The notes below the pieces were generated by a model. It was not told the DNA's origin. It saw nothing but the letters and a program-made list of their open reading frames with translations, and did not search any database. The translations under genes and the position numbers were made by a program. From the NCBI RefSeq assembly GCF_000020025.1, contig NC_010628.1, positions 4,080,001-4,112,000 on the forward strand: DNA of 32,000 nucleotides. The letters run 5' to 3'. The stretch comes from Nostoc punctiforme PCC 73102. Its GTDB lineage: Bacteria > Cyanobacteriota > Cyanobacteriia > Cyanobacteriales > Nostocaceae. Position 1 is the stretch's first letter. Each line of letters begins with the position of its first letter. This document shows, in pieces, positions 177 to 22,098 of this stretch.

Positions 177-3100
177 ATGATTATCAGATTTTTACACCGT
201 TTACACAATAAAATTCTATATTTCTTACTTAGCGTTCTTGGCATACTTAGCGGTAGCCTGCGGCAAGCCGTTCGCGTAGCGTCTCGTAGAGAAGCGTCTA
301 CGTTAAAAAAAATTAGCCATTCCTCACGCCAGAAGAGAAGGATACAGTTTCTTCTTCTCTTTACATTCATGCTAGCAATGACAGGGTGTAATTTTTTTGG
401 TATCAACTCAAGTAAAGAACAACTGCCAGCAGTATCCCCACTTACACCACCAAAATTACCAGACTGGATTGAACAAATTAGTCCTATTGGCGATGCAAAA
501 CCTCTCAACCAAATTCGCATCCGTTTTAAAGAAGCTTTAATCCCAGTTGAAAGTCTTGATAGTCCGGAACAACAGAAAATATTAGAAAAATTTGCCCTTT
601 GGCCGCCTTTACCCGGTCAATTTCGCTTTTTAACACCGCGTATGGTGGGATTTCAAGCTGAGAAAGCATTGCCAATAGCGACAAGATTTCAAGTCACTCT
701 CAAAGCAGGTTTAGCTGATTTAAAAAATCATCGCCTAGATAAAGATTTACCTTGGACTTTCAATACCGAATCTATCAAACTGACTAATTTACCTGGTGTC
801 AATCCTATTGAGAAGGCTGATATTGAACCCATTGATTTACAAGAAAAGCTACAGTTTACTTCCAACGTAGAATTAAATTTAGCTTCCGTACAAGAAAAAT
901 TACAGTTAATTCCTGAAGGAAAAAATAAAGGTGTAGGCTTCAAAGTCGAATTAAATAAAGAAGAAAAACCAGTAAAAAATGAAGAAGACCCTTTAGAAAA
1001 ATTTGACCCTTCAGCCCGCAATTGGATTTATAATCTCATCCCACAGCAAAATCTCGAAAAGGCAACTCCTTATCGCCTAGTCTTTTCTCCCGGAATACGT
1101 CCTGCTTATGGCAATCTCCCTACAGAGAAAGAATTTGCCAGTAAGTTAGTAACTTATTCACCTTTAGCATTCCAGAAAATCAACTTTTACGGACAGCCAG
1201 ATTCAGGTGGAACTTTTGGAAGATTTATTAAAGGCAGTCCCCAACTAGAATTTAATAACGTTTTACTGCCAGATTCAGCTAAAGAAAGTATTACGATTAA
1301 TCCAGCACCAAAAGACATTTCGAGAATCATCCAAATAAATGATGAAGATAAAATTGTCGGCATCAATCCTTATGCACTAGAACCAGCTAAAACTTATACA
1401 ATTACTATTGGCGGAAATCTCAAAGATAAGTTTGGGCAAACTTTGGGTAAACCTGTAACACTTAAATATGATACTGGAGATTTAGCCGGGGATATCTGGG
1501 TGCCATCAGATTTGAATATTTTCCCCACAGATAAAAATTTACAGCTAAATATTACTACCGGAAATCTACCAGAATCTAAATATAAAGCAGCTTATCGAGC
1601 AGTTAAACCAACAGATTTAGTTTATTTTAATAATAGTAATGATTTATTACCACAACCTTCTGATTGGCAAAGCTTTAAGGTATCGGGTCAGAAAAACCAA
1701 TCAGTCGATATTGCTGTTCCTCTGCGGGAAAAAATAAGTGCAGCCACAGGAATGTTAGCTTATGGAGTGCAAGCCCGTACTAATAAATATCAGGAAAATG
1801 GAAAGGAACTGTGGCGAGAACCTACCACTTATGGCTTAGTTGAATTGACGAATTTGGGCGTATTTACTCAGTGGTTTCCTGATTCAGGCTTAATTCGCGT
1901 CAATCATCTGACAGATGGTTCGCCAGTTCAAGCGGCGGCTGTGGAAATTTATCAATCAAAATTACAAGCAAAATCTCGCCCCGAACCGATATCTTGTGCA
2001 ACGGGTAAAACTGATGAAAATGGAATTTTTAGAATTATTCGTGAAGGATTACAGGCATGTTATTCTGGCAATGAAAGTTCTAGTAAATCACCACAATTAT
2101 TAGTAATTGCCCGTGAAAATCAAGATTGGGCATTCGCTAGAACTGAAGAATATAGCGGCGTTTATGGCTACGGTATTGATGCAGGTTGGCAAGATAGTAA
2201 GCCAGAATCACGCGGGGTAATTTTCTCAGACAGACAGTTATATCAACCAGGTGAAAAAGCTTGGTTTACTGGTTTTGCTGGCTTCTTGCAAAATGGCAAA
2301 ATCCAACAAGATAAAAATGCCGTTTACCAATTGACTTTAGTAAATCCTGATGGACAAAAGACTAACTTAGGTACACAAACTACAAATGAATTTGGTACGT
2401 TTTCTCTAGAATTGCCAATTAAAACTACTCAGCGCTTAGGCTACCATACAATCCAGGCTAAGGGTAAAAATGGACAAGAACTTTCTGGTGAATTTCGGGT
2501 GGCTGAGTTTAAGCCACCGAACTTTAAAGTCGAACTGAACTTAGATAAAGAATTTGCTTATATAGACGATAAAGTTGATATTAATGCAACAAGCAACTAT
2601 TTATTTGGTGCGCCTGTAGAAGGTGGAGAAGTAAAATACTTTATTACTCGTCAACAAGCTAATTTTATTCCCAAAGGTTGGGACGAATTTACTTTTGGTC
2701 GGCAGTGGTTATGGCCAGAAGAATCTCCTAGTATCTCTAGTGATGTGTTGCAAAATAATACCCAACTAGATGCTAATGGGAAAAATAGTCAAACGGTAAG
2801 TGTGGCTAAAGATTTACCGTATCCCATGACTTACCAAGTAGATGTGCAAGTTGCAGATGTTTCTAATCTGTCTGTAGCGAATTCCAAAACTTTTATAGCC
2901 TTACCTAGTAATCGTCTAATTGGGTTAAAAAGTAATTTCATTACTGATGCTGGTAAGGCTTTTCCTATTGATGTAGTTGTTACCGACCCTACAGGAAAAC
3001 CGATAACAGGTCAACGAGTGCGCCTGGAATTACAAGAGATTAAATACAGTAGTGTCACTCAATTAGTTGAAGGTAGCCGAACGGCAAAAAATCAAGTTGA

Positions 3101-6047
3101 ATATAAAACAGTGGGACAAGTAGAAATTACATCTGCTAGCAATCCCCAATCGGTAAGTTTGACAGCACCGGAATCTGGTTCATACCGGATTAGAGTGAAT
3201 TTTAGTGATGCAAAAAATGAATTAAGTGCCACAGATTTACAAATTTGGGCAACTGGACAAAACCCAGTATTTTGGGGTTCTAAAGAAAAAGATGTCTTAG
3301 AACTAAAATTAGATAAACAAGAGTTTAAACCTGGTGAAACTGCTACTGTACTAATTCAATCTCCCTATCCAGATGCAGAATTGTACTTTGCGGTGATTAA
3401 AGACAAACCCCTTTATCAGCAAATTACCAAGGTTCAAGGAAGCGCACCACAAATTCAGTTTCAAGTTACACCAGAAATGCTACCAAATGCAGCCATTGAA
3501 GCTGTATTAGTAAGACAAGGTAAACCCATCAGCCAAGTGGAAGTAGGAACTTTAGATAACTTGGTGAAGATTGGTTTTACACCTTTTAAAGTTAACTTAG
3601 AAGATAAGTATTTAAAACTGCAAGTTAAGCCAGTGCAAGCATCATTAGAACCTGGTGCAGAAGAAACAGTACAACTAGAACTGAAGGATAATCAAGGTAA
3701 TCCCACCAAAGGACAGTTTACAGTCATGGTGGTAAATGAAGCGGTGTTACAACTTTCTGGTTATCGTCCGCCAGATTTGGTGGATACAGTTTATGCAGAA
3801 CAGACAATATCTACCCGCTTTAACGATAATCGCGCGGATGTCATCTTACAACCGCAAGATGTAGCTAAACCAAAAGGTTGGGGTTATGGTGGTGGTTTCT
3901 CAACTGGTGCAGCGAATACTCGCACTCGCACCGATTTTAAAGCCTTAGCTTACTACAACGCTTCTGTTCTCACTGATGCAAATGGTAATGCACAGATAAC
4001 CTTTAAACTCCCGGATGACTTAACTACATGGCGGGTGATGGCTGTAGCCACCGATGGAAATCTGCGTTTCGGCAATGGGGACGCGACGTTTATCACCACA
4101 AAACCACTGCTAACTAATGCCATCTTGCCACAGTTTGCCCGTCCAGGCGATCGCATTCTCGCTGGTTTATCCGTCACCAACAACACCGGAAATACAGGAA
4201 ATCTCTCAATTAATGGCGAACTTAGCGGTACTGTGAAGTTTGCTGACAAAAACCCCACAACTACTGCTTTGCAAACCAAAGCTGAATCTGCAACCCATGC
4301 TTATCGCTTTCCAATGGTGGCGGATAGCGTCGGAGTTGGTAAGGTTCGCTTTACCACTCAGCTAAATGGTACAGCCGCAGATGCTTTTGAATTACCTTTG
4401 GAAATTAAGCCAGTTGAAATTACAGAACAAGTCGTTGAAACTGGTGTCACTGAAAAACAGGTGAAAATTCCCCTGAATGTTGATAAAAATACCTTCCCTG
4501 ATGCGGGAGGTTTAGATATTCAGTTAGCGAGTACTTTGATACCGGAGATTCAAGCACCAGCAAAGCAGGTTTTAAAAGATAATGATTTGCCGTTTACAGA
4601 ACCTGCTGCAAGTCAATTAATGATTGCGGCTAATTTGCAAACTATCTCCCAAAAATATGGTCCAACTTTTGCAGAATTTAATCCTAGCCAACAAGCTAAT
4701 TTAGCAATCGAACAATTACAAAAACTTCAAATAGCCGATGGTGGTTTTGCTGCTTTCCCCGGACAAGAAAAATCTGACCCTTGGGTTTCTGCTTATGCGG
4801 GTGAATCTTTGGCTAAAGCTAGTAAGGTATTCCCTAATTTAGTCGATTCTGGAATGCTATCTCGCCTCAAAACTTATCTGCAAAAAGTTCTAGCGAATCC
4901 TGGAGAATACGATTTTTGCAAACAACTACTCTGTAAAAGGCAACTGCAAATTAATAGTTTAATCGCTTTATCAGATTTAGGAGATAAACGCAATACTTTT
5001 CTTGCAGATATTTATGAACAGCGCAATAATTTTGATTTAGTAACTCAAATTAAACTAGCGCGATATTTATCTCAATTCCCAGAATGGCAAGATGAATCTC
5101 AACAATTAGTCAACAAGCTGCAACAGAATATCTATGAAACTGGCCGCACAGCAGTTGTGAGTTTACCCAGCAGTTGGGGATGGATGAGTTCATCTACGAC
5201 GACGCAAGCGCAAGCTTTACGCTTATTTATTGCCAAGCAAAGCAAACCCGAAGTTATAGATAAGTTATTCCAAAGCCTTCTCGCACTGCGCCGGGATGGT
5301 ACATGGCAAACTAACTATAATAATGCCCAAGCACTAACAGCTTTGGTAGATTATAGTCAACTGCAACCCACACCGCCGAATTTTGTTGCCACTGTGCAAT
5401 TAGCTGGTAATAAGTTAGGAGAGAATCGCTTTGAAGGTTACAAAAATCCTAGCTTACAACTAATTGTGCCAATGAATCTATTACCTCGTGGGCGTAATGA
5501 TTTAACGCTGCAAAAAGCAGGTAATGGCACTTTACACTATCTGGTTGCTTATAATTATCGCTTGCAAGGAAATCAACAAGGCAGGTTTAACGGTTTACGC
5601 ATAACACGAGAAATTAGTCAAGTAAATGAAGAGAAAGTTTTACAAAAAACAGGTATTTATGCTTTCGATAAACCCTTGACTTTAACTTCTGGACAGGTGT
5701 TTGATATTGGTTTAGAAATCATCGCCGATCGCCCCGCGGATCATATAGTAATTAAAGATCCTTTACCAGCAGGCTTTGAGGCGGTAGATGCAAGTTTTCA
5801 AACTACCACAGCTGCATTACAAGCAAAAGCCGATAATTGGGAACTTGGCTTTAGAAATATCTACCGCGATCGCATTATCGCCTATGCCGACCACCTGGAA
5901 CCAGGAGTTTATAGTCTGCATTACCTAGTCCGTTCTGTCACCCCTGGTACCTTTTCCTGGCCTGGTGCAGAAGTTCACCTACAATATGCACCAGAAGAAT
6001 TTGGGCGTACTGCTGAGTCTACATTGATATTGGAGGATGCGAAGTAG
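177..6047 (+). CDS. Alpha-2-macroglobulin family lipoprotein (bacterial A2M, YfaS-like, apparently thioester-less)
   Basis: 1956-aa ORF. Lipobox-like LAMTGC follows a basic/hydrophobic stretch. LPDDLTTWRVMAVA motif is typical of A2M/complement MG domains. Where the CxEQ thioester is expected the sequence reads PFTEPAASQLMIAAN, with no Cys. Start is uncertain: ATG at 177 leaves ~70 aa ahead of the lipobox, and I see no other canonical in-frame start between them. Confidence 0.85.
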   Translation: MIIRFLHRLHNKILYFLLSVLGILSGSLRQAVRVASRREASTLKKISHSSRQKRRIQFLLLFTFMLAMTGCNFFGINSSKEQLPAVSPLTPPKLPDWIEQISPIGDAKPLNQIRIRFKEALIPVESLDSPEQQKILEKFALWPPLPGQFRFLTPRMVGFQAEKALPIATRFQVTLKAGLADLKNHRLDKDLPWTFNTESIKLTNLPGVNPIEKADIEPIDLQEKLQFTSNVELNLASVQEKLQLIPEGKNKGVGFKVELNKEEKPVKNEEDPLEKFDPSARNWIYNLIPQQNLEKATPYRLVFSPGIRPAYGNLPTEKEFASKLVTYSPLAFQKINFYGQPDSGGTFGRFIKGSPQLEFNNVLLPDSAKESITINPAPKDISRIIQINDEDKIVGINPYALEPAKTYTITIGGNLKDKFGQTLGKPVTLKYDTGDLAGDIWVPSDLNIFPTDKNLQLNITTGNLPESKYKAAYRAVKPTDLVYFNNSNDLLPQPSDWQSFKVSGQKNQSVDIAVPLREKISAATGMLAYGVQARTNKYQENGKELWREPTTYGLVELTNLGVFTQWFPDSGLIRVNHLTDGSPVQAAAVEIYQSKLQAKSRPEPISCATGKTDENGIFRIIREGLQACYSGNESSSKSPQLLVIARENQDWAFARTEEYSGVYGYGIDAGWQDSKPESRGVIFSDRQLYQPGEKAWFTGFAGFLQNGKIQQDKNAVYQLTLVNPDGQKTNLGTQTTNEFGTFSLELPIKTTQRLGYHTIQAKGKNGQELSGEFRVAEFKPPNFKVELNLDKEFAYIDDKVDINATSNYLFGAPVEGGEVKYFITRQQANFIPKGWDEFTFGRQWLWPEESPSISSDVLQNNTQLDANGKNSQTVSVAKDLPYPMTYQVDVQVADVSNLSVANSKTFIALPSNRLIGLKSNFITDAGKAFPIDVVVTDPTGKPITGQRVRLELQEIKYSSVTQLVEGSRTAKNQVEYKTVGQVEITSASNPQSVSLTAPESGSYRIRVNFSDAKNELSATDLQIWATGQNPVFWGSKEKDVLELKLDKQEFKPGETATVLIQSPYPDAELYFAVIKDKPLYQQITKVQGSAPQIQFQVTPEMLPNAAIEAVLVRQGKPISQVEVGTLDNLVKIGFTPFKVNLEDKYLKLQVKPVQASLEPGAEETVQLELKDNQGNPTKGQFTVMVVNEAVLQLSGYRPPDLVDTVYAEQTISTRFNDNRADVILQPQDVAKPKGWGYGGGFSTGAANTRTRTDFKALAYYNASVLTDANGNAQITFKLPDDLTTWRVMAVATDGNLRFGNGDATFITTKPLLTNAILPQFARPGDRILAGLSVTNNTGNTGNLSINGELSGTVKFADKNPTTTALQTKAESATHAYRFPMVADSVGVGKVRFTTQLNGTAADAFELPLEIKPVEITEQVVETGVTEKQVKIPLNVDKNTFPDAGGLDIQLASTLIPEIQAPAKQVLKDNDLPFTEPAASQLMIAANLQTISQKYGPTFAEFNPSQQANLAIEQLQKLQIADGGFAAFPGQEKSDPWVSAYAGESLAKASKVFPNLVDSGMLSRLKTYLQKVLANPGEYDFCKQLLCKRQLQINSLIALSDLGDKRNTFLADIYEQRNNFDLVTQIKLARYLSQFPEWQDESQQLVNKLQQNIYETGRTAVVSLPSSWGWMSSSTTTQAQALRLFIAKQSKPEVIDKLFQSLLALRRDGTWQTNYNNAQALTALVDYSQLQPTPPNFVATVQLAGNKLGENRFEGYKNPSLQLIVPMNLLPRGRNDLTLQKAGNGTLHYLVAYNYRLQGNQQGRFNGLRITREISQVNEEKVLQKTGIYAFDKPLTLTSGQVFDIGLEIIADRPADHIVIKDPLPAGFEAVDASFQTTTAALQAKADNWELGFRNIYRDRIIAYADHLEPGVYSLHYLVRSVTPGTFSWPGAEVHLQYAPEEFGRTAESTLILEDAK

Positions 6048-6425: not shown

Positions 6426-6691
6426 TATTTCACCCCCAATAAGTGACTTTTACCAACGATAATCACAACAAAGATGGCTTCAATGAAGAAATTGCCGCGA
6501 TTATTGTGAACGATGAGCCAGTCTAAAAGGGAACACAAAATTAAGTATACAGCAAGTAGCTATTTATTAGCTGTGATTATAGTAAGCTTTTCCAATCATG
6601 GACATTAAGTGTAGACTATACCAGGTTCTGTTAATAGCATTGCAATCAGTGGGTCTAGATTAAGCATTTTTCCCTTCTCTCTGTGTCCTCT

Positions 6692-6836
6692 GGGTTAACC
6701 CTCAATACTTCTAGCTTTGTGCATTTTTAACTCGGAATCGGGTTTAGGGGAAAGGGTACTGGGTTTGGGTTAAAGGTTTTTCTTTCCCTTTTACCTTCCC
6801 CTTTTCCCCAAAACCCGAGAAGTATTGGGTTAACCC
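6692..6836. repeat. MITE-like long hairpin element
   Basis: Terminal inverted repeats GGGTTAACCCTCAATACTTCT (6692..6712) and AGAAGTATTGGGTTAACCC (6818..6836). Interior arms are also complementary: CGGGTTT 6739..6745 with AAACCCG 6811..6817, and GGGGAAAGGG 6747..6756 with CCCCTTTTCCCC 6798..6809. Intergenic. Confidence 0.55.
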
Positions 6837-6892
6837 TAACTGAACCGTATTAGGATTTAGCTGGCACATTTTCAGATATTATACAAATCTTA

Positions 6893-8101
6893 TTATTTTA
6901 CAACTACCCATTGCGTTACAGGTGCCATTGCCCGCCAGCCCAAAAATTTACCAATAGGTTCCGTCCGTTGAATGGCAACACGAGTTAAATCGCCACCGAC
7001 TCGTTCATGCCATTGAAATAAAGTTTGCTCGCCCTCTACCGTCACCACATTTGCTACCAAACGCCCACCCGGACGCAGTGCTTCCCAGCAAACATCAAAA
7101 AGTCCTGTTGCTGTCACCCCACCACCAATAAAAATAGCATCTGGTGCTGGCAAATCTTTCAGTGCATGGGGCGCTTTACCTTCAATGATTTGCACATTTG
7201 GAGTACCGAGAGTGGCGGCATTATCGGCAATATAAAGTAGTCTAGAAGAATTTTGTTCGATCGCGATCGCTCGACATCGAGCATTACTCCGCATCCATTC
7301 GATAGAAATTGAACCGCAACCCGCGCCAACATCCCACAACAATTGTCCCGGTGTGGGTGCTAAAGCTGCTAGGGTGATTGCCCTAACCTCACGCTTCGTT
7401 AACTGTCCATCGTGGTGATAAGCGTTATCTGGTAGCCCTGGTAATCTTGGTAATGGGATAACCCCAGCATCAGCAATACAATAAACTGCGATCGCATTCA
7501 AAGCCGCAACTTCAGTTTCACTCCAAGATGCAGCCGTACCTTCCACAATTCTTTCATGAGTACCGCCCATACGCTCCAAGACGGTAATTTCGCTGCCACC
7601 ATAGCCGCGATTTGTCAAAATTTTCGCAACAATGGCGGGTGTGTCCTTCCCTCCACTCAAAATCAACAACCGTGCTTTTGGGTAAATGTAAGACTGGAGT
7701 AGGGAGGATGGACGACCATTCAAACTCAAGGTTTCCACCTCAGTTAAAGACCATCCCATCCTGGCACAGGCGAGGCTGAAAGCTGAAGGTGCGGGGATAA
7801 TCGTCATTTCAGAAACGGGAATTCGCCGCATTAAGGTGACACCAATGCCGTAACACATCGGATCGCCGCTTGCGAGTACGCAGATTGACTGACCGCGACG
7901 CTGAATGATTTCGTCTACAGAAATGCTAATGGGGGATGTCCAGACTATTTTTTCACGTTGATCGTCTGTAGGGAGCATTGCTAAATGGCGATCGCCTCCG
8001 ACAATTACTTTAGCTCGATCGACTAGAGAACGAGCGATAGCACTTAACCCCTGTAATCCATCTTCCCCAATGCCCACGATAGAAAGCCATTTCTCTGTCA
8101 T
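6893..8101 (-). CDS. cobL: Precorrin-6Y C5,15-methyltransferase (decarboxylating), CbiE/CbiT fusion
   Basis: 402 aa. N-terminal tetrapyrrole methylase half (LSIVGIGEDG...GDPMCYGIG). C-terminal CbiT-type SAM methyltransferase half (TKREVRAITLAAL...LWDVGAGCGSISIEW). Confidence 0.9.
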   Translation of the reverse strand: MTEKWLSIVGIGEDGLQGLSAIARSLVDRAKVIVGGDRHLAMLPTDDQREKIVWTSPISISVDEIIQRRGQSICVLASGDPMCYGIGVTLMRRIPVSEMTIIPAPSAFSLACARMGWSLTEVETLSLNGRPSSLLQSYIYPKARLLILSGGKDTPAIVAKILTNRGYGGSEITVLERMGGTHERIVEGTAASWSETEVAALNAIAVYCIADAGVIPLPRLPGLPDNAYHHDGQLTKREVRAITLAALAPTPGQLLWDVGAGCGSISIEWMRSNARCRAIAIEQNSSRLLYIADNAATLGTPNVQIIEGKAPHALKDLPAPDAIFIGGGVTATGLFDVCWEALRPGGRLVANVVTVEGEQTLFQWHERVGGDLTRVAIQRTEPIGKFLGWRAMAPVTQWVVVK

Positions 8102-16633: not shown

Positions 16634-17090
16634 GGATTAGTCAAAAGCGATCGCAGTCTTTTAATGTATAAAAACAAGTCAGTTACCCTGCGATCGCAAA
16701 TAGTGAAATCAAACCATAATCTATTGTCTCCAGTGTTGCAAAAGTCATTGTAGAAGCAGTTCCTAGAGGTATTGCTCCTGTTTTAGAACGGACTAGAATT
16801 TGCATAGACATAACTTTTTCAATTCTTTGACAAGCTCCTGTAACATCAAGCTATTAACTTAAAAAATATTGCTTTTAACAAAATAACGACCCGTAACAAT
16901 AACTAAAAAACATTCCAAATTTCTTGACTTTTAAGTTACTCACTACTGAGTGGTGAGTAAAAAGTAAAATTAGGACAAAAGCCAAGCAAGTAGTCTGGAT
17001 TTAGGGGGAATACAAAACGTTTTGTTACTGCCAAGAGGAATTTTAAAACATCCTCTAAACCAACAGATATTTTTGAAGGTTCAAATAACT

Positions 17091-18089
17091 ATGAATAATC
17101 TATCTCATCAGTATCTAGAAGAAAGTAATAAAAAGGAGAAACTTTTATATACTGCTGATACAGTGCGTGCTTATCTTCGCGAGATTGGACGGATACCTTT
17201 ATTAACTCATGAGCAGGAGATTAATTTTGCCAAGCAAGTTCAAAAAATGATGGCTTTACTAGCTACGAAAGAAAAACTAGCTATTCAATTAAAACGTCAA
17301 CCAACACAAAAAGAGTGGATTGAAAATATAAATATTGGTGAAAAATCACTGCTACAACAGCTACATCAAGGGCAAAAAGCGAAGCAGAAAATGATTCAGG
17401 CTAACCTGCGACTTGTAGTATCTATTGCTAAGAAATATCAAAGACATAACCTAGATTTTCTCGATTTAATTCAAGAAGGGAGTTTAGGCTTAGAGCGAGG
17501 AGTTGAGAAATTTGACCCAACTAAAGGGTACAAGTTTTCAACTTATGGCTATTGGTGGATTCGTCAGGCAATTACACGAGCGATCGCCGAACAAGGACGT
17601 ACTATCCGCTTGCCTATTCATATTACAGAAAAGCTGAACAAAATCAAGCGGATTCAACGCGAACTAACTCAAAAATTAGGTCGTACTCCTACCGCAGTTG
17701 ATATCGCCGAAGAACTATCTTTAGATCCAAAACAAATTCGAGATTATTTACTTTTAGCACGTCAACCTGTCTCTCTAGAATTACGAGTTGGCTCAGACAA
17801 AGATATAGAATTACAAGATATGTTGGAGGATAATGGACTTTCCCCAGAATTATACGCTGACCATAAGTTTCTCCAACAAAATATTCAAAATTTATTGTCA
17901 AAATTAAATCCACAGCAACGACAAATATTAACTTTCCGTTTTGGTTTAACAGATGGAAATGAACTTTCTTTAGCAGAGATTGGTCAACGTATGGGTATTA
18001 GTCGAGAACGAGTGCGACAGATAGAGCAACAAGCTTTGGGTAGTCTAAGAAGACATAAGGATAAAATACACAGCTATCTAGCTAGTTAA
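17091..18089 (+). CDS. Group 2 sigma-70 family RNA polymerase sigma factor
   Basis: Regions 1.2-4.2 are recognisable ([15 protein letters not shown]; [39 protein letters not shown]; [21 protein letters not shown]). ATG at 17091 is preferred over the upstream TTG at 17022. Confidence 0.9.
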
Positions 18090-18484: not shown

Positions 18485-19090
18485 ATGAAAAAAAGAGAAA
18501 AAATTGAACGCGATTTTCAAAATCTTCTTGAAATTATTGAAAATCAACGACCAGGATATATAGCTGCAATGGACGAAGGAGTATCTGATGAAATAATCAG
18601 AGATTGCATCAAAATTCATCCAATTCCTGAAGGTTTAATGGCTATATACTCTTGCGTCAAAGGTTTATCTGTATCTAAATTAATCGAAAAGTTTGATTAT
18701 CCTACAGATTTCATTCCTGGTTGCGATTTAATAAATATTTATGAATTTGATAAAATAATTAATCTTTTAAAAGCAGTACATAGAAACCCTGAGCCTTGGG
18801 CATGGCAACCAGATATGATTCCTTTTCTAGTGTATTGCGATGTTGATTACTATTGCGTCAGAACATTGCCTTCAGACCAATCTGTTGTATTCTGTTCAAA
18901 AGAAAACCAATGGATTACCATCTGTCAAAATATTGAAGATTTTATTTTAATAATTACTGAATGTTATAAGCAGAATGCTTATTTTTTAGATAATGTATAC
19001 TTGGAAAAAAATTATGATTTGGAAGAAAAAATTATCTTAAACTTCAACCCTAATTATTATTCTCAAAATGACTTAAAACCAGAAGCATGA
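18485..19090 (+). CDS. SMI1/KNR4 (SUKH superfamily) immunity-like protein
   Basis: 201 aa, very AT-rich. GVSDEIIRDCIKIHPIPEGLMAIYSCVKG and MIPFLVYCDVDYYCV resemble the SUKH-1 N-terminal ligand motif and central strand. Weaker match than the next gene. Confidence 0.5.
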   Translation: MKKREKIERDFQNLLEIIENQRPGYIAAMDEGVSDEIIRDCIKIHPIPEGLMAIYSCVKGLSVSKLIEKFDYPTDFIPGCDLINIYEFDKIINLLKAVHRNPEPWAWQPDMIPFLVYCDVDYYCVRTLPSDQSVVFCSKENQWITICQNIEDFILIITECYKQNAYFLDNVYLEKNYDLEEKIILNFNPNYYSQNDLKPEA

Positions 19091-19214: not shown

Positions 19215-19808
19215 ATGGAAATCTTGAACTGGGAAAACCGTATTAGAGAATGGAGTCAAAAGCGAATAAAAATATTTCTTGAAGATTACGATGAAGAAGA
19301 TTTATCCCCGGAAGTTCGCAAATCTGGCTACTTAGGTTATCCTGGTGCAGCTGAGGAGCAAATAGTTACTACCGAAGCTCGTTTAAATGTAACTTTTACA
19401 CCTTCTTACCGGGAGTTTCTGAAAGCTTCTAATGGGTTACGTTCTATATCAGAATATAGTCTAGAGTTTTGTGGAACTGAAGATATTGTATGGTATGCTC
19501 CTGACCACCAAGATTGGGTAGATGAATTAATGGAAACTTGGAATAAACCAGTAACAGATGAGGAATATTTTGTTTATGGAGACGAACAATCAAATTACAC
19601 ATTTCGTCCAGAGTATCTACAAACATCGTTAGAAATTAGCAGTGAAGATATGGGCTATATATTTTTACTTAATCCTCAAATAATTGTCATAGATAATGAG
19701 TGGGAAGCTTGGTATTGCAATTTTTCAAGTTCATTTGGCATATATAGGTATCGTTCTTTTAGTGAAATGATGGAGGAAATATTAAACGATCCAGAATTTC
19801 TTGGATAG
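19215..19808 (+). CDS. SMI1/KNR4 (SUKH superfamily) immunity-like protein
   Basis: 197 aa. YPGAAEEQIVTTEARLNVTFTPSYREFLKASNGL is the classic SMI1_KNR4 opening motif. Acidic, W/Y-rich C-terminal half. Confidence 0.75.
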   Translation: MEILNWENRIREWSQKRIKIFLEDYDEEDLSPEVRKSGYLGYPGAAEEQIVTTEARLNVTFTPSYREFLKASNGLRSISEYSLEFCGTEDIVWYAPDHQDWVDELMETWNKPVTDEEYFVYGDEQSNYTFRPEYLQTSLEISSEDMGYIFLLNPQIIVIDNEWEAWYCNFSSSFGIYRYRSFSEMMEEILNDPEFLG

Positions 19809-20010: not shown

Positions 20011-20649
20011 CTACAAAAACAGAGATTGAACAGTCAGATCCTTCTGGGTGATGCTAAAGTTACGCAGTTCTGCTATTGCAATGAATGAAACGATCGCTTC
20101 ACACGCCACAGCAACGGTTAACATCACCAGGTTTCGTGCCAACGGATAATCACAGACGTCATCATTAACCTCGGAAGGAACGCGATAAAATTCATTCCAA
20201 ATCACTTCTCCATAATCAGTCGATAGTCCAGCATGAAGACAAGGAATGCTTAACTGTTGAGCATAATCTTTCACTGCTTGACGTGCCACACTATTATCGA
20301 AGACATCGACAATTAGCTGGCTGTCTTTGAGTAGTTGAGTTGCATTTGCTGGTGTTAACTCCTTTGTTTTGGCATCAACTTTAGTACCAATAGCTCTATA
20401 TAAATTATTCGCCAAAATCTTCGCCTTAAATGCTCCAACATCAGGACGGTAGTAAGGCTGAGTGGAAAGATTGCGCTCCTCAATGCGATCGCGATCTATC
20501 ACTGTAAGTTTATCAAAACCAGACCGAGCTAAGTTTTCCGCAATGTTAGCTCCTAATGCTCCAGCGCCACAAATGATTATAGGATAATTTTTTAGCTTTG
20601 CCATCACAGCCTTGGTGCGGTAAAGCTGTTCGTGAAAAAAGATACTCAT
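20011..20649 (-). CDS. ThiF/MoeB/HesA-family E1-like adenylyltransferase (minimal, 212 aa)
   Basis: Rossmann nucleotide motif ICGAGALGANIAENLARSG, then VIDRDRIEERNLSTQ, typical of the E1-like adenylation domain. No rhodanese, Cys-rich or peptide-clamp extension. Lies 21 nt downstream of the preceding ORF on the same strand. Confidence 0.85.
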   Translation of the reverse strand: MSIFFHEQLYRTKAVMAKLKNYPIIICGAGALGANIAENLARSGFDKLTVIDRDRIEERNLSTQPYYRPDVGAFKAKILANNLYRAIGTKVDAKTKELTPANATQLLKDSQLIVDVFDNSVARQAVKDYAQQLSIPCLHAGLSTDYGEVIWNEFYRVPSEVNDDVCDYPLARNLVMLTVAVACEAIVSFIAIAELRNFSITQKDLTVQSLFL

Positions 20650-20670
20650 AATAATTCGTAATTAATACAC

Positions 20671-21504
20671 TCACCACTCTTGTTTTTCCATGACACCCAC
20701 TAAGGATTGCAAGTCAAAATCGCGATCGCGTCCACTCAGACAGATGCCAGAACTAACAACAGTCAAGTCAGTTTTAGCGATCGCACTACTATGGCGAACA
20801 CCATCAGCAGTTGTCCAATCGACTGTCCAGTAGTCGCTGCGATCGTGGAATTGAGTTAAGGTAGCGCCACCCATTTGCAATGCCTTTCTCAATCGCTTTT
20901 CATCCTGTTGGGATTGAGTAAATCCCTCAATGCGCCGAGTTGCTAATTCATACACTGTGAGGATTTCTGGAGTCATACCTTTAAACTGTAATTCCTCAGC
21001 ATGAATGAGTTGCTTAACAGCAGATTGCAGAGTTTCAACAATTACTGGATCGGTACGGCGATCGATTTCCTCGAACCAAGATGAATGCCCATTCCAACGG
21101 ACAATAATTTGCTCAAAGGTAACGCCCTCGGTAACTAAGTGAACTGCGAGCGGCTTAACTATCTTTAACCGTTGATGCATATCTACTTCATTTACAGGAT
21201 ATGCTAACCAAGTTTGTCCCCGCAGTTGGTGTGCTAACCGCAGCCGTATTTGGGAAAAGTGTTGCAGGTATTCCACAATTTGGGGTAAGTCTGCTTCTTC
21301 TACAACCGTTGCTGTTTTTTCATCCACAGCCTGAAAGATGCCCCAACCTTCAAATTTACTAGGCTTTGGCGTGAAAGTGTAGCTCATCCCAGCTACCCGT
21401 GTGCGAACTCGTCCACCTTTGACGCAGGGCGCAAGGAATTGGGTAGTATGTAACTGTGCTTCTGCGATCGCAATTTGGTTGATTAGCTTAAATATGTTAG
21501 CCAT
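20671..21504 (-). CDS. Unknown-function protein (277 aa from ATG 21504), co-oriented partner of the ThiF-like gene
   Basis: Long ORF with coding-like composition that carries HIP1 sites. No catalytic motif recognised: no JAB HxH, no clear E2 HPN, no C-terminal GG. The track start at 21516 is a TTG; ATG at 21504 gives MANIFKLINQ. Confidence 0.75.
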   Translation of the reverse strand: MANIFKLINQIAIAEAQLHTTQFLAPCVKGGRVRTRVAGMSYTFTPKPSKFEGWGIFQAVDEKTATVVEEADLPQIVEYLQHFSQIRLRLAHQLRGQTWLAYPVNEVDMHQRLKIVKPLAVHLVTEGVTFEQIIVRWNGHSSWFEEIDRRTDPVIVETLQSAVKQLIHAEELQFKGMTPEILTVYELATRRIEGFTQSQQDEKRLRKALQMGGATLTQFHDRSDYWTVDWTTADGVRHSSAIAKTDLTVVSSGICLSGRDRDFDLQSLVGVMEKQEW

Positions 21505-21522
21505 AACTAATACCAATTTTTT

Positions 21523-21545
21523 AAAACAAGGTTACAGATGCAACC
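21523..21545 (-). terminator. Weak terminator/attenuator-like hairpin in the leader
   Basis: The minus strand reads GGUUGC-AUCU-GUAACC followed by UUGUUUU, ~20 nt upstream of ATG 21504 and ~55 nt downstream of the structured RNA. Confidence 0.35.
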
Positions 21546-21600
21546 ATATAAAATCTGACTTTCTTAATTACCAATTACGAATTACGAATTAATATAATTC

Positions 21601-21804
21601 TGCGTGCAAGTTGGTGGAGCATTACGTGTTCTCAGTTACTAGAGGGACTCCGCTGGTGAGTTGTTACACACTCTTTCAAGGATGGCTACTTTTAAGCCTA
21701 CCTCCCAGGTTCTTCGTACTCCCCATTCACACACGCCCACTGCATTTGGCAGTGTTACCTTTCCTCTCGTACTAGTATGTAGGCTCCACGAGTTGGGGCA
21801 CGCA
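21601..21804 (-). ncRNA. Structured RNA candidate carrying a sarcin-ricin-loop core and a 23S GTPase-associated-centre (H42-H44) look-alike
   Basis: On the minus strand, AGUACGAGAGGA lies at 21773..21762. A 58-nt segment at 21709..21652 aligns without gaps to E. coli 23S 1051-1108 (recalled): 41/58 identical by hand count, with three compensatory base-pair changes. All helices nest inside a closing stem (21804..21783 paired with 21620..21601). Confidence 0.55.
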
Positions 21805-21819
21805 AAAACTATATGTTAC

Positions 21820-21848
21820 ATTGTACTACAGAAACTCGCAAATGTAAA
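21820..21848 (-). promoter_or_regulatory. Sigma-70-type promoter candidate for the structured RNA/operon
   Basis: The minus strand reads TTTACA (21848..21843), a 17-nt spacer, then TACAAT (21825..21820). The predicted start at ~21812-21814 is about 10 nt before the first helix. Confidence 0.45.
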
Positions 21849-21904: not shown

Positions 21905-22098
21905 ATGAAGCCTGATGGTAAAATCATTATTTTAGATTGGTGTAGAGATTATTTATCTGTAAAATATTTGATTTAGCACTTAAAATTTTTGATCCGGCTC
22001 ATAAGCAGTGTTACACAAAAAATGAGTTTTACCGATTGCTTAAAGATGAAAACTTTGTGGTCTGTCGTGCGACCAAAATTTGTTTTAGTATTATGTAG
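21905..22098 (+). pseudogene. C-terminal remnant of a class I SAM-dependent methyltransferase with an in-frame TAG
   Basis: Hand translation: MKPDGKIIILDWCRDYLSVKYLI-TAG(21974..21976)-HLKIFDPAHKQCYTKNEFYRLLKDENFVVCRATKICFSIM. The LKPGG-like post-I/II region is present but the SAM-binding N-terminal half is absent. Confidence 0.5.

Follow-up and report, generated by a model that had tools for sequence, protein, structure and literature searches.

Y RNAs and their protein partner Ro60 act in RNA quality control and are sited in RNA-repair operons (PMC4201824, PMC7790460), and jumbo phages carry Ro60 among RNA-repair genes (PMC7824862). The bacterial Y-like RNA YrlA (Rfam RF02553) lies beside the gene of a Ro60-type protein (Ro60/Rsr), and relatively few YrlA RNAs have been found in cyanobacteria (Chen et al. 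2014, PMC4201824). Another group of described systems is formed by operons that join an E1 enzyme with an invariant cysteine, a Prok-JAB peptidase and a small glycine-ended protein (Iyer, Burroughs and Aravind 2006, PMC1779556; Bil, CBASS Cap2/Cap3), and no operon type tabulated in PMC1779556 has a vWA or TROVE domain. Here we analyse a locus of Nostoc punctiforme PCC 73102 that has features of both groups. It lies in a window of 32,000 nucleotides (contig NC_010628.1, positions 4,080,001 to 4,112,000; coordinates below count from the first letter of this window) and consists of a structured RNA, a gene for a 277-aa protein and a gene for a 212-aa E1-like enzyme of the ThiF family. Following this analysis, we consider it likely that the locus belongs to a conserved system comprising a class of Y-RNA-like non-coding RNAs, a Ro60-like protein and an E1.

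Related loci were gathered through the 277-aa protein, 80 from cyanobacteria and 80 from diverse metagenomes; where a single one has to be named we use its L number. A first-pass annotation, made from the letters of the window alone, had described the RNA and the two genes as one minus-strand module and had proposed comparing gene neighbourhoods across cyanobacteria. This comparison bore the module out. The E1 gene follows the 277-aa gene in 80/80 cyanobacterial loci, as found by clustering of the open reading frames (ORFs), and in 61/80 the RNA precedes the 277-aa gene with the same orientation, at 83-97% identity across cyanobacterial orders and including members of the Leptolyngbyaceae, the Coleofasciculaceae and Crinalium. 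A collection of plasmids gave full-length matches to the RNA in exactly the two records that have the 277-aa gene. In the window the two ORFs are 21 nt apart, and about 92 nt separate the 3' end of the RNA from the ATG of the 277-aa ORF.

The RNA resembles ribosomal RNA (rRNA) in two places. The Rfam large-subunit (LSU) model LSU_rRNA_archaea matched it with 54.6 bits (gathering threshold 50, E 4e-13) over 56 nt at 21653-21708 on the minus strand, without gaps, in helices 42-44 of 23S rRNA, and LSU_rRNA_bacteria matched the RNAs of L046, L071 and L080. In Rfam 15 this local LSU match is the only hit of the RNA, which is assigned to no family. A single copy of AGUACGAGAGGA, the universal sarcin-ricin sequence, is present in the window, where 0.11 would be expected at one mismatch or fewer. 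The two mimicked elements are both rRNA parts of the ribosome's factor-binding site, and the first-pass annotation was right to see GTPase-centre rRNA in this RNA. In its sequence, the RNA is a mimic of 23S helices 42-44 (H42-44) and of the sarcin-ricin loop (SRL), the sites where translation factors dock and ribosome toxins strike. Oligoribonucleotides with the thiostrepton and sarcin-ricin domains, the so-called 'ribosome-in-pieces', have been used in vitro to bind EF-G. They present the same two rRNA elements outside the ribosome; here, the elements are natural, genome-encoded and united in one RNA with a conserved scaffold. Matches of 50-70 nt to the H42-44 mimic, at 80-90% identity, were also obtained in 14 unrelated plasmid or chromid records, and these are probably (unchecked) the 23S genes of those records.

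The secondary structure was built by hand on an alignment of 26 sequences. A terminal stem (P1) and a second stem (P2) close the RNA and lead into a four-way junction, from which emerge the sarcin-ricin hairpin, a hairpin P4, and a stem P5 that carries the H42-44 copy. Pairing in this structure amounts to 94.3%, and 11 pairs have changed on both sides, versus 2-3 when the partners are slid; 0/500 shuffles reached the observed values. Three of the doubly changed pairs are in P5. The closing pair of the SRL mimic covaries (UG, UA, GC, GU) and its loop is invariant in the main copies except for one base in L078. A covariance model (R1) has a single match in the window, at 21590-21810, with 269.6 bits. 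Two other foldings were rejected. The RNAalifold consensus mispaired the 5' end with the SRL region and was replaced by the hand-built structure, which is supported by the pair counts. A pairing of UACAUAC with GUGUGUG inside the rRNA-like RNA was dropped too: its 5' strand is invariant, its 3' strand varies without compensation, and the 3' strand pairs in P5 instead. The same UACAUAC/GUGUGUG pairing is the acceptor-like stem of a sister tRNA-like RNA.

These results bear on one explanation of the rRNA likeness, namely that a scrambled piece of a 23S gene lies beside the gene pair as a functionless relic. The similarity to 23S rRNA itself speaks for such a relic, and so does the state of the window locus, which is truncated and flanked by gene remnants. 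However, the order of the two elements is not collinear with 23S rRNA: the SRL copy is 5' of the H42-44 copy, both lie within about 156 nt, and the LSU model match is limited to 56 nt. Compensatory changes that preserve the helices, the identity maintained across orders and a scaffold that recurs in over 200 further RNAs are also hard to reconcile with a relic, and we give this explanation hardly any credence.

Extra copies of the RNA accompany the full one in four loci, about 1.7 kb upstream of it (L005:1999-2157, L018:2034-2195, L025:997-1158 and L032:995-1160). They are truncated at the 3' end, so that the SRL and H42-44 parts are kept and P5', P2' and P1' are lost.

The RNA, which lies directly upstream of the 277-aa gene and on its strand in 61/80 loci, had been called a leader RNA in the first-pass annotation. 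As a cis-regulatory leader, the rRNA mimic would bind L10(L12)n/L11 or a translation factor and thereby control the expression of the 277-aa protein and the E1. This would follow the classic logic of ribosomal-protein leaders such as the L10 leader, in which the rRNA binding site of a stalk protein is also copied, and the terminator-like hairpin before the ORF could be an attenuator. Unlike in those leaders, however, the downstream genes are not ribosomal, an SRL copy is present too, and the RNA is closed on itself by its own covarying stem. Its distance to the gene ranges from 10 nt in Kovacikia to about 2,000 nt in L078, and in L080 an EEP nuclease gene sits between the two. In addition, 12 loci with all the protein genes lack the rRNA-like RNA, and the same scaffold occurs elsewhere in the loci with other inserts, including arrays downstream of the E1 gene. 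Because of these points, and of promoter-like and terminator-like sites of its own, we take the RNA to be an independent non-coding RNA, and the leader description is not supported; we regard control in cis as improbable.

The L080 copy, from Crinalium, is interrupted by two genes, for an OLD-family nuclease (AAA_15 and TOPRIM; 911-2797) and for the EEP nuclease/phosphatase (3070-3936).

In distant loci, R1 matched with the ends of the model alone, and these ends define a scaffold: P1, a 5' loop CCCYAAC, P2 ending in AGCNUACA, then after the insert GCU-P2', RACUUG and P1'. This pattern had 254 matches on the gene strand of 162 sources, compared with 0.8 in shuffles; the single match on the opposite strand belongs to the window, whose genes lie on the minus strand. 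Among 99 distinct scaffolds with 71 different 5' strands, P1 is paired in 93%, versus 66% with the 3' strands exchanged; for P2 the values are 89% and 75% for the control. The closing scaffold is common to every RNA of these loci and the insert is variable. Inserts fall into hairpins of about 25 nt, tRNA-like inserts of 70-104 nt, SRL-like mini-inserts (distant loci L101 and L102) and, in cyanobacteria, the 155-158-nt insert with both H42-44 and SRL. Some of the tRNA-like inserts show matches to the YrlA model that stay below its threshold (down to E 3.8e-7, the best with 45.1 bits versus a gathering threshold of 69). The 'anticodons' of the tRNA-like inserts are not conserved and change from one orthologous locus to another (gaa, taa, ctg, tgg, tca, tga, aat). 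Some loci have arrays of up to seven scaffold RNAs downstream of the E1 gene. In many non-cyanobacterial loci a scaffold RNA with a short insert occupies the slot between the Ro60-like and the 277-aa genes; because it stands in the same place, the cyanobacterial rRNA mimic looks like an elaboration of an ancestral RNA.

As in YrlA, the paired 5' and 3' ends form a stem that contains an internal loop (P1 and P2 here), and the module enclosed by it is variable and imitates an RNA of translation; by eye, the scaffold AACUUG with the P1 3' strand is also reminiscent of how the YrlA consensus of Rfam ends, ...AaAcUuGucGccg. YrlA lies beside a Ro60-type gene; the rRNA-like RNA has a gene for a Ro60-like (TROVE/vWA) protein as its neighbour in 62/80 of the related cyanobacterial loci and not in the window. 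Unlike in YrlA, the module of the window RNA copies 23S H42-44 and the sarcin-ricin loop and not tRNA. The partner genes also differ from those of YrlA loci, being for an E1, a glycine-ended protein, a JAB peptidase and a multi-OB protein in place of RtcB/RtcA or PNPase, and the RNAs form arrays of as many as seven.

The window has the 3' half of this conserved system and is a truncated copy of it: no genes for a ubiquitin-like (Ubl) protein, a JAB peptidase, a TROVE protein or L12 and no tRNA-like elements were found within the 32 kb. Homology to the loci of relatives ends at 21834, immediately 5' of the RNA, and in several relatives the 30 nt or so upstream of the RNA are kept (start at 21830-21834). 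Beyond this point there is a methyltransferase-like remnant and then a transporter operon. The remnant, at 21905-22098 on the plus strand, was recognised by eye as a frameshifted C-terminal fragment of a gene like those of S-adenosylmethionine-dependent methyltransferases (...MKPDGKIIILDWCRDY... / ...FDPAHKQCYTKNEFYRLL...), and it marks the breakpoint at which the upstream half is missing.

Complete loci have, in this order, a glycine-ended protein of about 66 aa, one or more scaffolded tRNA-like RNAs, sometimes a bL12 paralog, the Ro60-like TROVE/vWA protein, the rRNA-like RNA, the 277-aa protein, a JAB peptidase (outside cyanobacteria) and the E1. The TROVE/vWA gene, encoding about 477 aa with a C-terminal vWA domain, is upstream of the RNA in 62/80 cyanobacterial loci. 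Its product matched the structure of a Thermus-phage Ro60 (phiRo60) in a phmmer search (residues 25-394, E 7e-5), and a profile of the family reached Ro60 (4.8e-6), phiRo60 (1.1e-3), Xenopus Ro60 (1.2e-3) and Deinococcus Rsr (0.027); Pfam vWA_Ro60 was matched by 9/22 members. From these similarities the upstream protein is, by prediction, a divergent Ro60. The small protein was found in 34 loci, 11 of them cyanobacterial, with the C-terminus RPEAV[YF]G followed directly by the stop codon; the cyanobacterial loci have the tail RPEAVYG, and in metagenome loci the tail is RPEAVFG. We infer a ubiquitin-like role for it from its size, its invariant terminal glycine and its linkage to the E1 and JAB genes. 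A Prok-JAB peptidase (PF14464) of about 140 aa is encoded between the 277-aa and E1 genes in 41/80 metagenome loci and in phage copies, and not in the cyanobacterial loci. Metagenome contigs of sufficient length have the Ro60-like gene and the small glycine-ended protein upstream. The order is kept around a 277-aa homolog of 31% identity, where a small glycine-ended protein comes first and is followed by a Ro60-like protein with 51% identity to that of Nostoc, by the 277-aa homolog and by the E1.

The bL12 paralog occurs in 14 cyanobacterial loci (TIGR00855, 106.8 bits against a cut-off of 84.4) and merits attention because the RNA copies the stalk base that is bound by L10-L12. It is full-length (for example L046:719-1099), stands between the tRNA-like RNA and the Ro60-like gene and has no adjoining L10 gene. 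At least 40 cyanobacterial loci have one further conserved protein, of about 170 aa and without a family match, between the small glycine-ended protein and the tRNA-like RNA (for example L002:37-552); in cyanobacteria it could be one more part of the system.

The E1-like enzyme matched the Pfam ThiF family PF00899 with 103.8 bits (gathering threshold 28.1, E 1.1e-29) and remained below every NCBIfam equivalog cut-off: ThiF 93.4 against 159, MoeB 53.7 against 449, TcdA 37 against 304, and PRTRC_ThiF 50.2 against 144.75. Its earlier description as a minimal E1 is supported. The GxGxxG motif (CGAGxLG) and the DxFDN motif are conserved at 95% or more, and the family has an invariant cysteine, Cys166, in DVCDYPLARN. 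In one locus (L071) the E1 gene is displaced to 6435-7061, and a CRISPR repeat match (CRISPR-DR28, 36.8 bits against 35) lies at 4967-4990, between the 277-aa gene and the E1 gene.

Because complete loci encode a glycine-ended protein, a JAB peptidase and a Ro60-like protein, activation of a ubiquitin-like protein is likelier than action of the E1 on RNA, and the enzyme most likely activates the small protein, so far as can be predicted. The first-pass annotation had called an RNA-directed activity conceivable and held that the module matches none of the sulfur-carrier or ubiquitin-like contexts known to it. It correctly noted that the window has no gene for a ubiquitin-like protein or a JAB peptidase; its broader statement is not supported, given that the window is truncated and that complete relatives have the small glycine-ended protein, the Ro60-like protein and, outside cyanobacteria, a JAB peptidase. 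With RNA as its substrate, by analogy with TcdA and t6A, the E1 would adenylate or modify either the rRNA-like RNA or the ribosome, with the 277-aa OB protein serving as RNA-binding subunit. The RNA is always on the same strand and beside these genes, the E1, a minimal one, has a non-canonical motif in place of NLxRQ, the partner is modelled as a multi-OB and probably RNA-binding protein, and no ubiquitin-like protein is encoded near the window trio or near six other copies. Against this, the glycine-ended protein and the JAB peptidase are conserved in the same system, the invariant cysteine of the E1 is typical of thioester or acyl transfer, the TcdA score is far from its cut-off, and in 12 loci both genes occur without the rRNA-like RNA. 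We thus hold an RNA substrate of the E1 to be quite unlikely.

The same components might instead form a sulfur relay of the TtuB/TtuC or Urm1/Uba4 kind, in which the E1 would thiocarboxylate the glycine-ended protein, and this would supply sulfur for thiolation of the locus RNAs, both tRNA-like and rRNA-like, or of the corresponding RNAs of the cell, with the cysteine of the 277-aa protein taking part in the relay. An E1, a small glycine-ended protein and a JAB peptidase are indeed linked here to tRNA-like RNAs, the cysteines are invariant, and the best NCBIfam likenesses of the E1 are the ThiF and MoeB models. However, these scores are all far under the cut-offs, and no conserved neighbour was recognised as a rhodanese, cysteine desulfurase or PP-loop thiolase. 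The tail of the small protein, moreover, is [FY]G and not GG, and it has no ThiS or MoaD match in Pfam. To a sulfur relay, too, we assign a low probability.

Activation of the small protein by the E1, which we prefer to both alternatives, would bring the locus close to the E1-JAB-Ubl operons. It differs from these by having no recognisable UBC-fold E2, by the [FY]G tail, by the absence of JAB from the cyanobacterial versions, and by its linkage to the Ro60-like protein, the multi-OB protein and the structured RNAs.

The 277-aa protein had been reported as one without a recognisable motif, and this description still applies, as no family match was obtained in Pfam, NCBIfam, PADLOC or PHROGs. 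The family is large (700 clusters at 50% identity). The structural comparison that had been advised for it returned OB folds and no characterised family: an AlphaFold2 model of high confidence (predicted local distance difference test, pLDDT, 93) has OB folds at the N-terminus, followed by a long helix and, at the C-terminus, a four-stranded domain, and Foldseek matched OB folds only (IF1, the OB domain of proteasomal ATPases, Tudor-SN and S1). The C-terminal 100 residues or so, with a helix, four strands, a loop and a helix, hold the invariant residues of the family, Cys255 (in GICLSG), D260, F263 and D264. In the model, the topology of this cysteine domain recalls the UBC fold, and we infer from this a possible role as an E2-like carrier. 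One close homolog (P0035) is named 'DUF4376 domain-containing protein' by NCBI; the window protein has no Pfam match.

The system is widespread in bacteria and giant phages. The whole set was found in IMG/VR contigs of 122-390 kb, and a complete system is present in the 595-kb 'uncultured phage' LR756511.1 (L170, 274920-293729), beside its array of eight tRNA genes. A scaffold RNA of this phage (3188-3417 of L170) has a 191-nt insert that by eye is like 23S 'UAAGGUAGCGA'; as a second rRNA mimic it was rejected, with no Rfam LSU match at E 1. On the Dolichospermum plasmid pAfl69 (L169, 58435-68932) the RNA, the 277-aa gene and the E1 gene are beside a gene with a HEPN domain and an IS1634 transposase.

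Several results weigh against the assignment to a Ro60- and ubiquitin-like system, and they are best considered together. The RNA itself has no reported match to the Rfam YrlA model, and its 5' loop is CCCYAAC and not the published bacterial Ro-binding motif GNCGAAN0-1G (PMC4201824). An element GUGCGAAG does occur in the H42-like internal loop of the RNA, where it is neither invariant nor near the 5' end. On the protein side, Pfam gave no TROVE match for the upstream protein at E 0.01, sequence searches placed the small protein in no ubiquitin-like or other family, and in the E1 family N(L/V)STQ (NxSTQ) replaces the arginine of NLxRQ. The C-terminal domain of the 277-aa protein, when modelled by itself (pLDDT 87), gave no UBC or E2 match in the PDB by Foldseek. 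Furthermore, RNA copies away from the 277-aa gene were sampled in the plasmid collection alone, which makes it the sole test independent of that protein. Lastly, seven copies, namely those of the window, L001, L017, L047, L062, L069 and plasmid pAfl69, have the RNA, the 277-aa gene and the E1 gene with no TROVE or Ubl gene within reach. Because these copies have the trio alone, it may work without the TROVE and ubiquitin-like proteins. Conceivably these three parts are a functional unit in themselves; they may also rely on genes at other sites or have reduced function.

Perhaps the components act together in tagging guided by a bait. In this mechanism proteins of the system would dock on the scaffold, by way of the Ro60-like ring, the OB folds of the 277-aa protein or both, and the insert would be a bait. 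It would attract proteins with an affinity for tRNA or the GTPase centre, perhaps ribotoxins, translation GTPases or L10/L11/L12. The E1 would adenylate the C-terminal glycine of the small protein and pass it on via its own invariant cysteine, possibly to Cys255 of the 277-aa protein, and the tag would go to the protein bound to the bait or to a component of the particle. We put this mechanism forward as a tentative proposal that we regard as doubtful when taken by itself; blended with the identity of the system into a single reading, the whole appears moderately probable. A role in conflicts over the translation apparatus would fit what is known of Ro60 and Y RNAs in RNA quality control, in RNA-repair operons and in jumbo phages. 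One could go further and see a modular 'bait RNA' system of immunity or counter-immunity, whose scaffold shows the targets of toxins (tRNAs, the SRL, the L11 stalk base) and in which a protein engaging the bait would be tagged, or the particle switched, via the E1. This wider idea is speculative, and we think it unlikely.

The features of the locus are collected in Table 1.

Table 1. Features of the RNA and the two genes, with positions in the 32,000-nt window.
Feature	Position	Strand	Details and support
212-aa E1-like (ThiF family) ORF	20011-20649	minus	
277-aa ORF	20671-21504	minus	ATG start; an upstream TTG would give 281 aa
Terminator-like hairpin and U-tract between RNA and ORF	21530-21545	minus	Consensus match only
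Stand-alone structured non-coding RNA, Y-RNA-like scaffold with rRNA-mimic insert	21597-21806 (~210 nt)	minus	R1 model; covariation; 61/80 loci
Scaffold 3' half	21599-21629	minus	P5 3' strand 21624-21629; P2 3' strand 21615-21620; AACUUG 21607-21612; P1 3' strand 21599-21607
Mimic of 23S helices 42-44 (L10/L11-binding stalk base, thiostrepton site)	21642-21724	minus	Rfam LSU; covarying pairs in H42 base and H43
Hairpin P4, CACUGC-loop-GCAGUG	21738-21754	minus	Apical pair CG to UA in 7 sequences
Sarcin-ricin-loop (23S helix 95) mimic, 4-bp stem and AGUACGAGAGGAA	21756-21777	minus	Exact 12-mer at 21762-21773
Scaffold 5' half	21778-21806	minus	P1 5' strand 21798-21806; loop CCCAAC 21792-21797; P2 5' strand 21783-21788; CUACA 21778-21782
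Promoter-like site TTTACA-17 nt-TACAAT	21820-21848	minus	10/12 consensus positions; such matches are no commoner than in shuffles of the region

Some other features of the region were observed. Between the RNA and the 277-aa ORF there are heptanucleotide repeats, AATTCGT AATTCGT AATTGGT, at 21563-21590 on the minus strand, and the same repeat, often inverted, is present in the spacers between the 277-aa and E1 genes of many relatives. HIP1 sites are found at 20485, 20722, 20777 and 21464, where the first reading of the window had placed them. Between the E1 gene and a sigma-70 gene (17022-18089) lie two SUKH-1 (SMI1/KNR4) genes, at 18485-19090 and 19215-19808 on the plus strand; in relatives the sigma-70 gene comes directly after the E1 gene. 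SUKH proteins typically confer immunity within polymorphic toxin systems.

Full-text searches of the literature that could be reached found no link of TROVE or Ro60 to E1, JAB or Ubl genes and no Y RNA that mimics rRNA, and in that literature a Ro60-type particle tied to ubiquitin-like chemistry would be a new link. The scaffold motif is a candidate for a new Rfam family. The divergent Y-like RNAs of these loci escape the existing models, which bears on the scarcity of YrlA in cyanobacteria. With the RNA described here, mimicry by RNAs of the Y type would be widened from tRNA to the GTPase centre of the ribosome, and this mimicry points to translation factors, stalk proteins or ribotoxins as possible clients. 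If the bait-RNA reading were true, it would add to a new class of Y RNA a selection of substrates for a ubiquitin-like pathway that is guided by RNA. The tag would then be carried by a new cysteine carrier without a UBC fold and fused to OB folds, and both cells and giant phages would use such a system to protect translation or to take it over.

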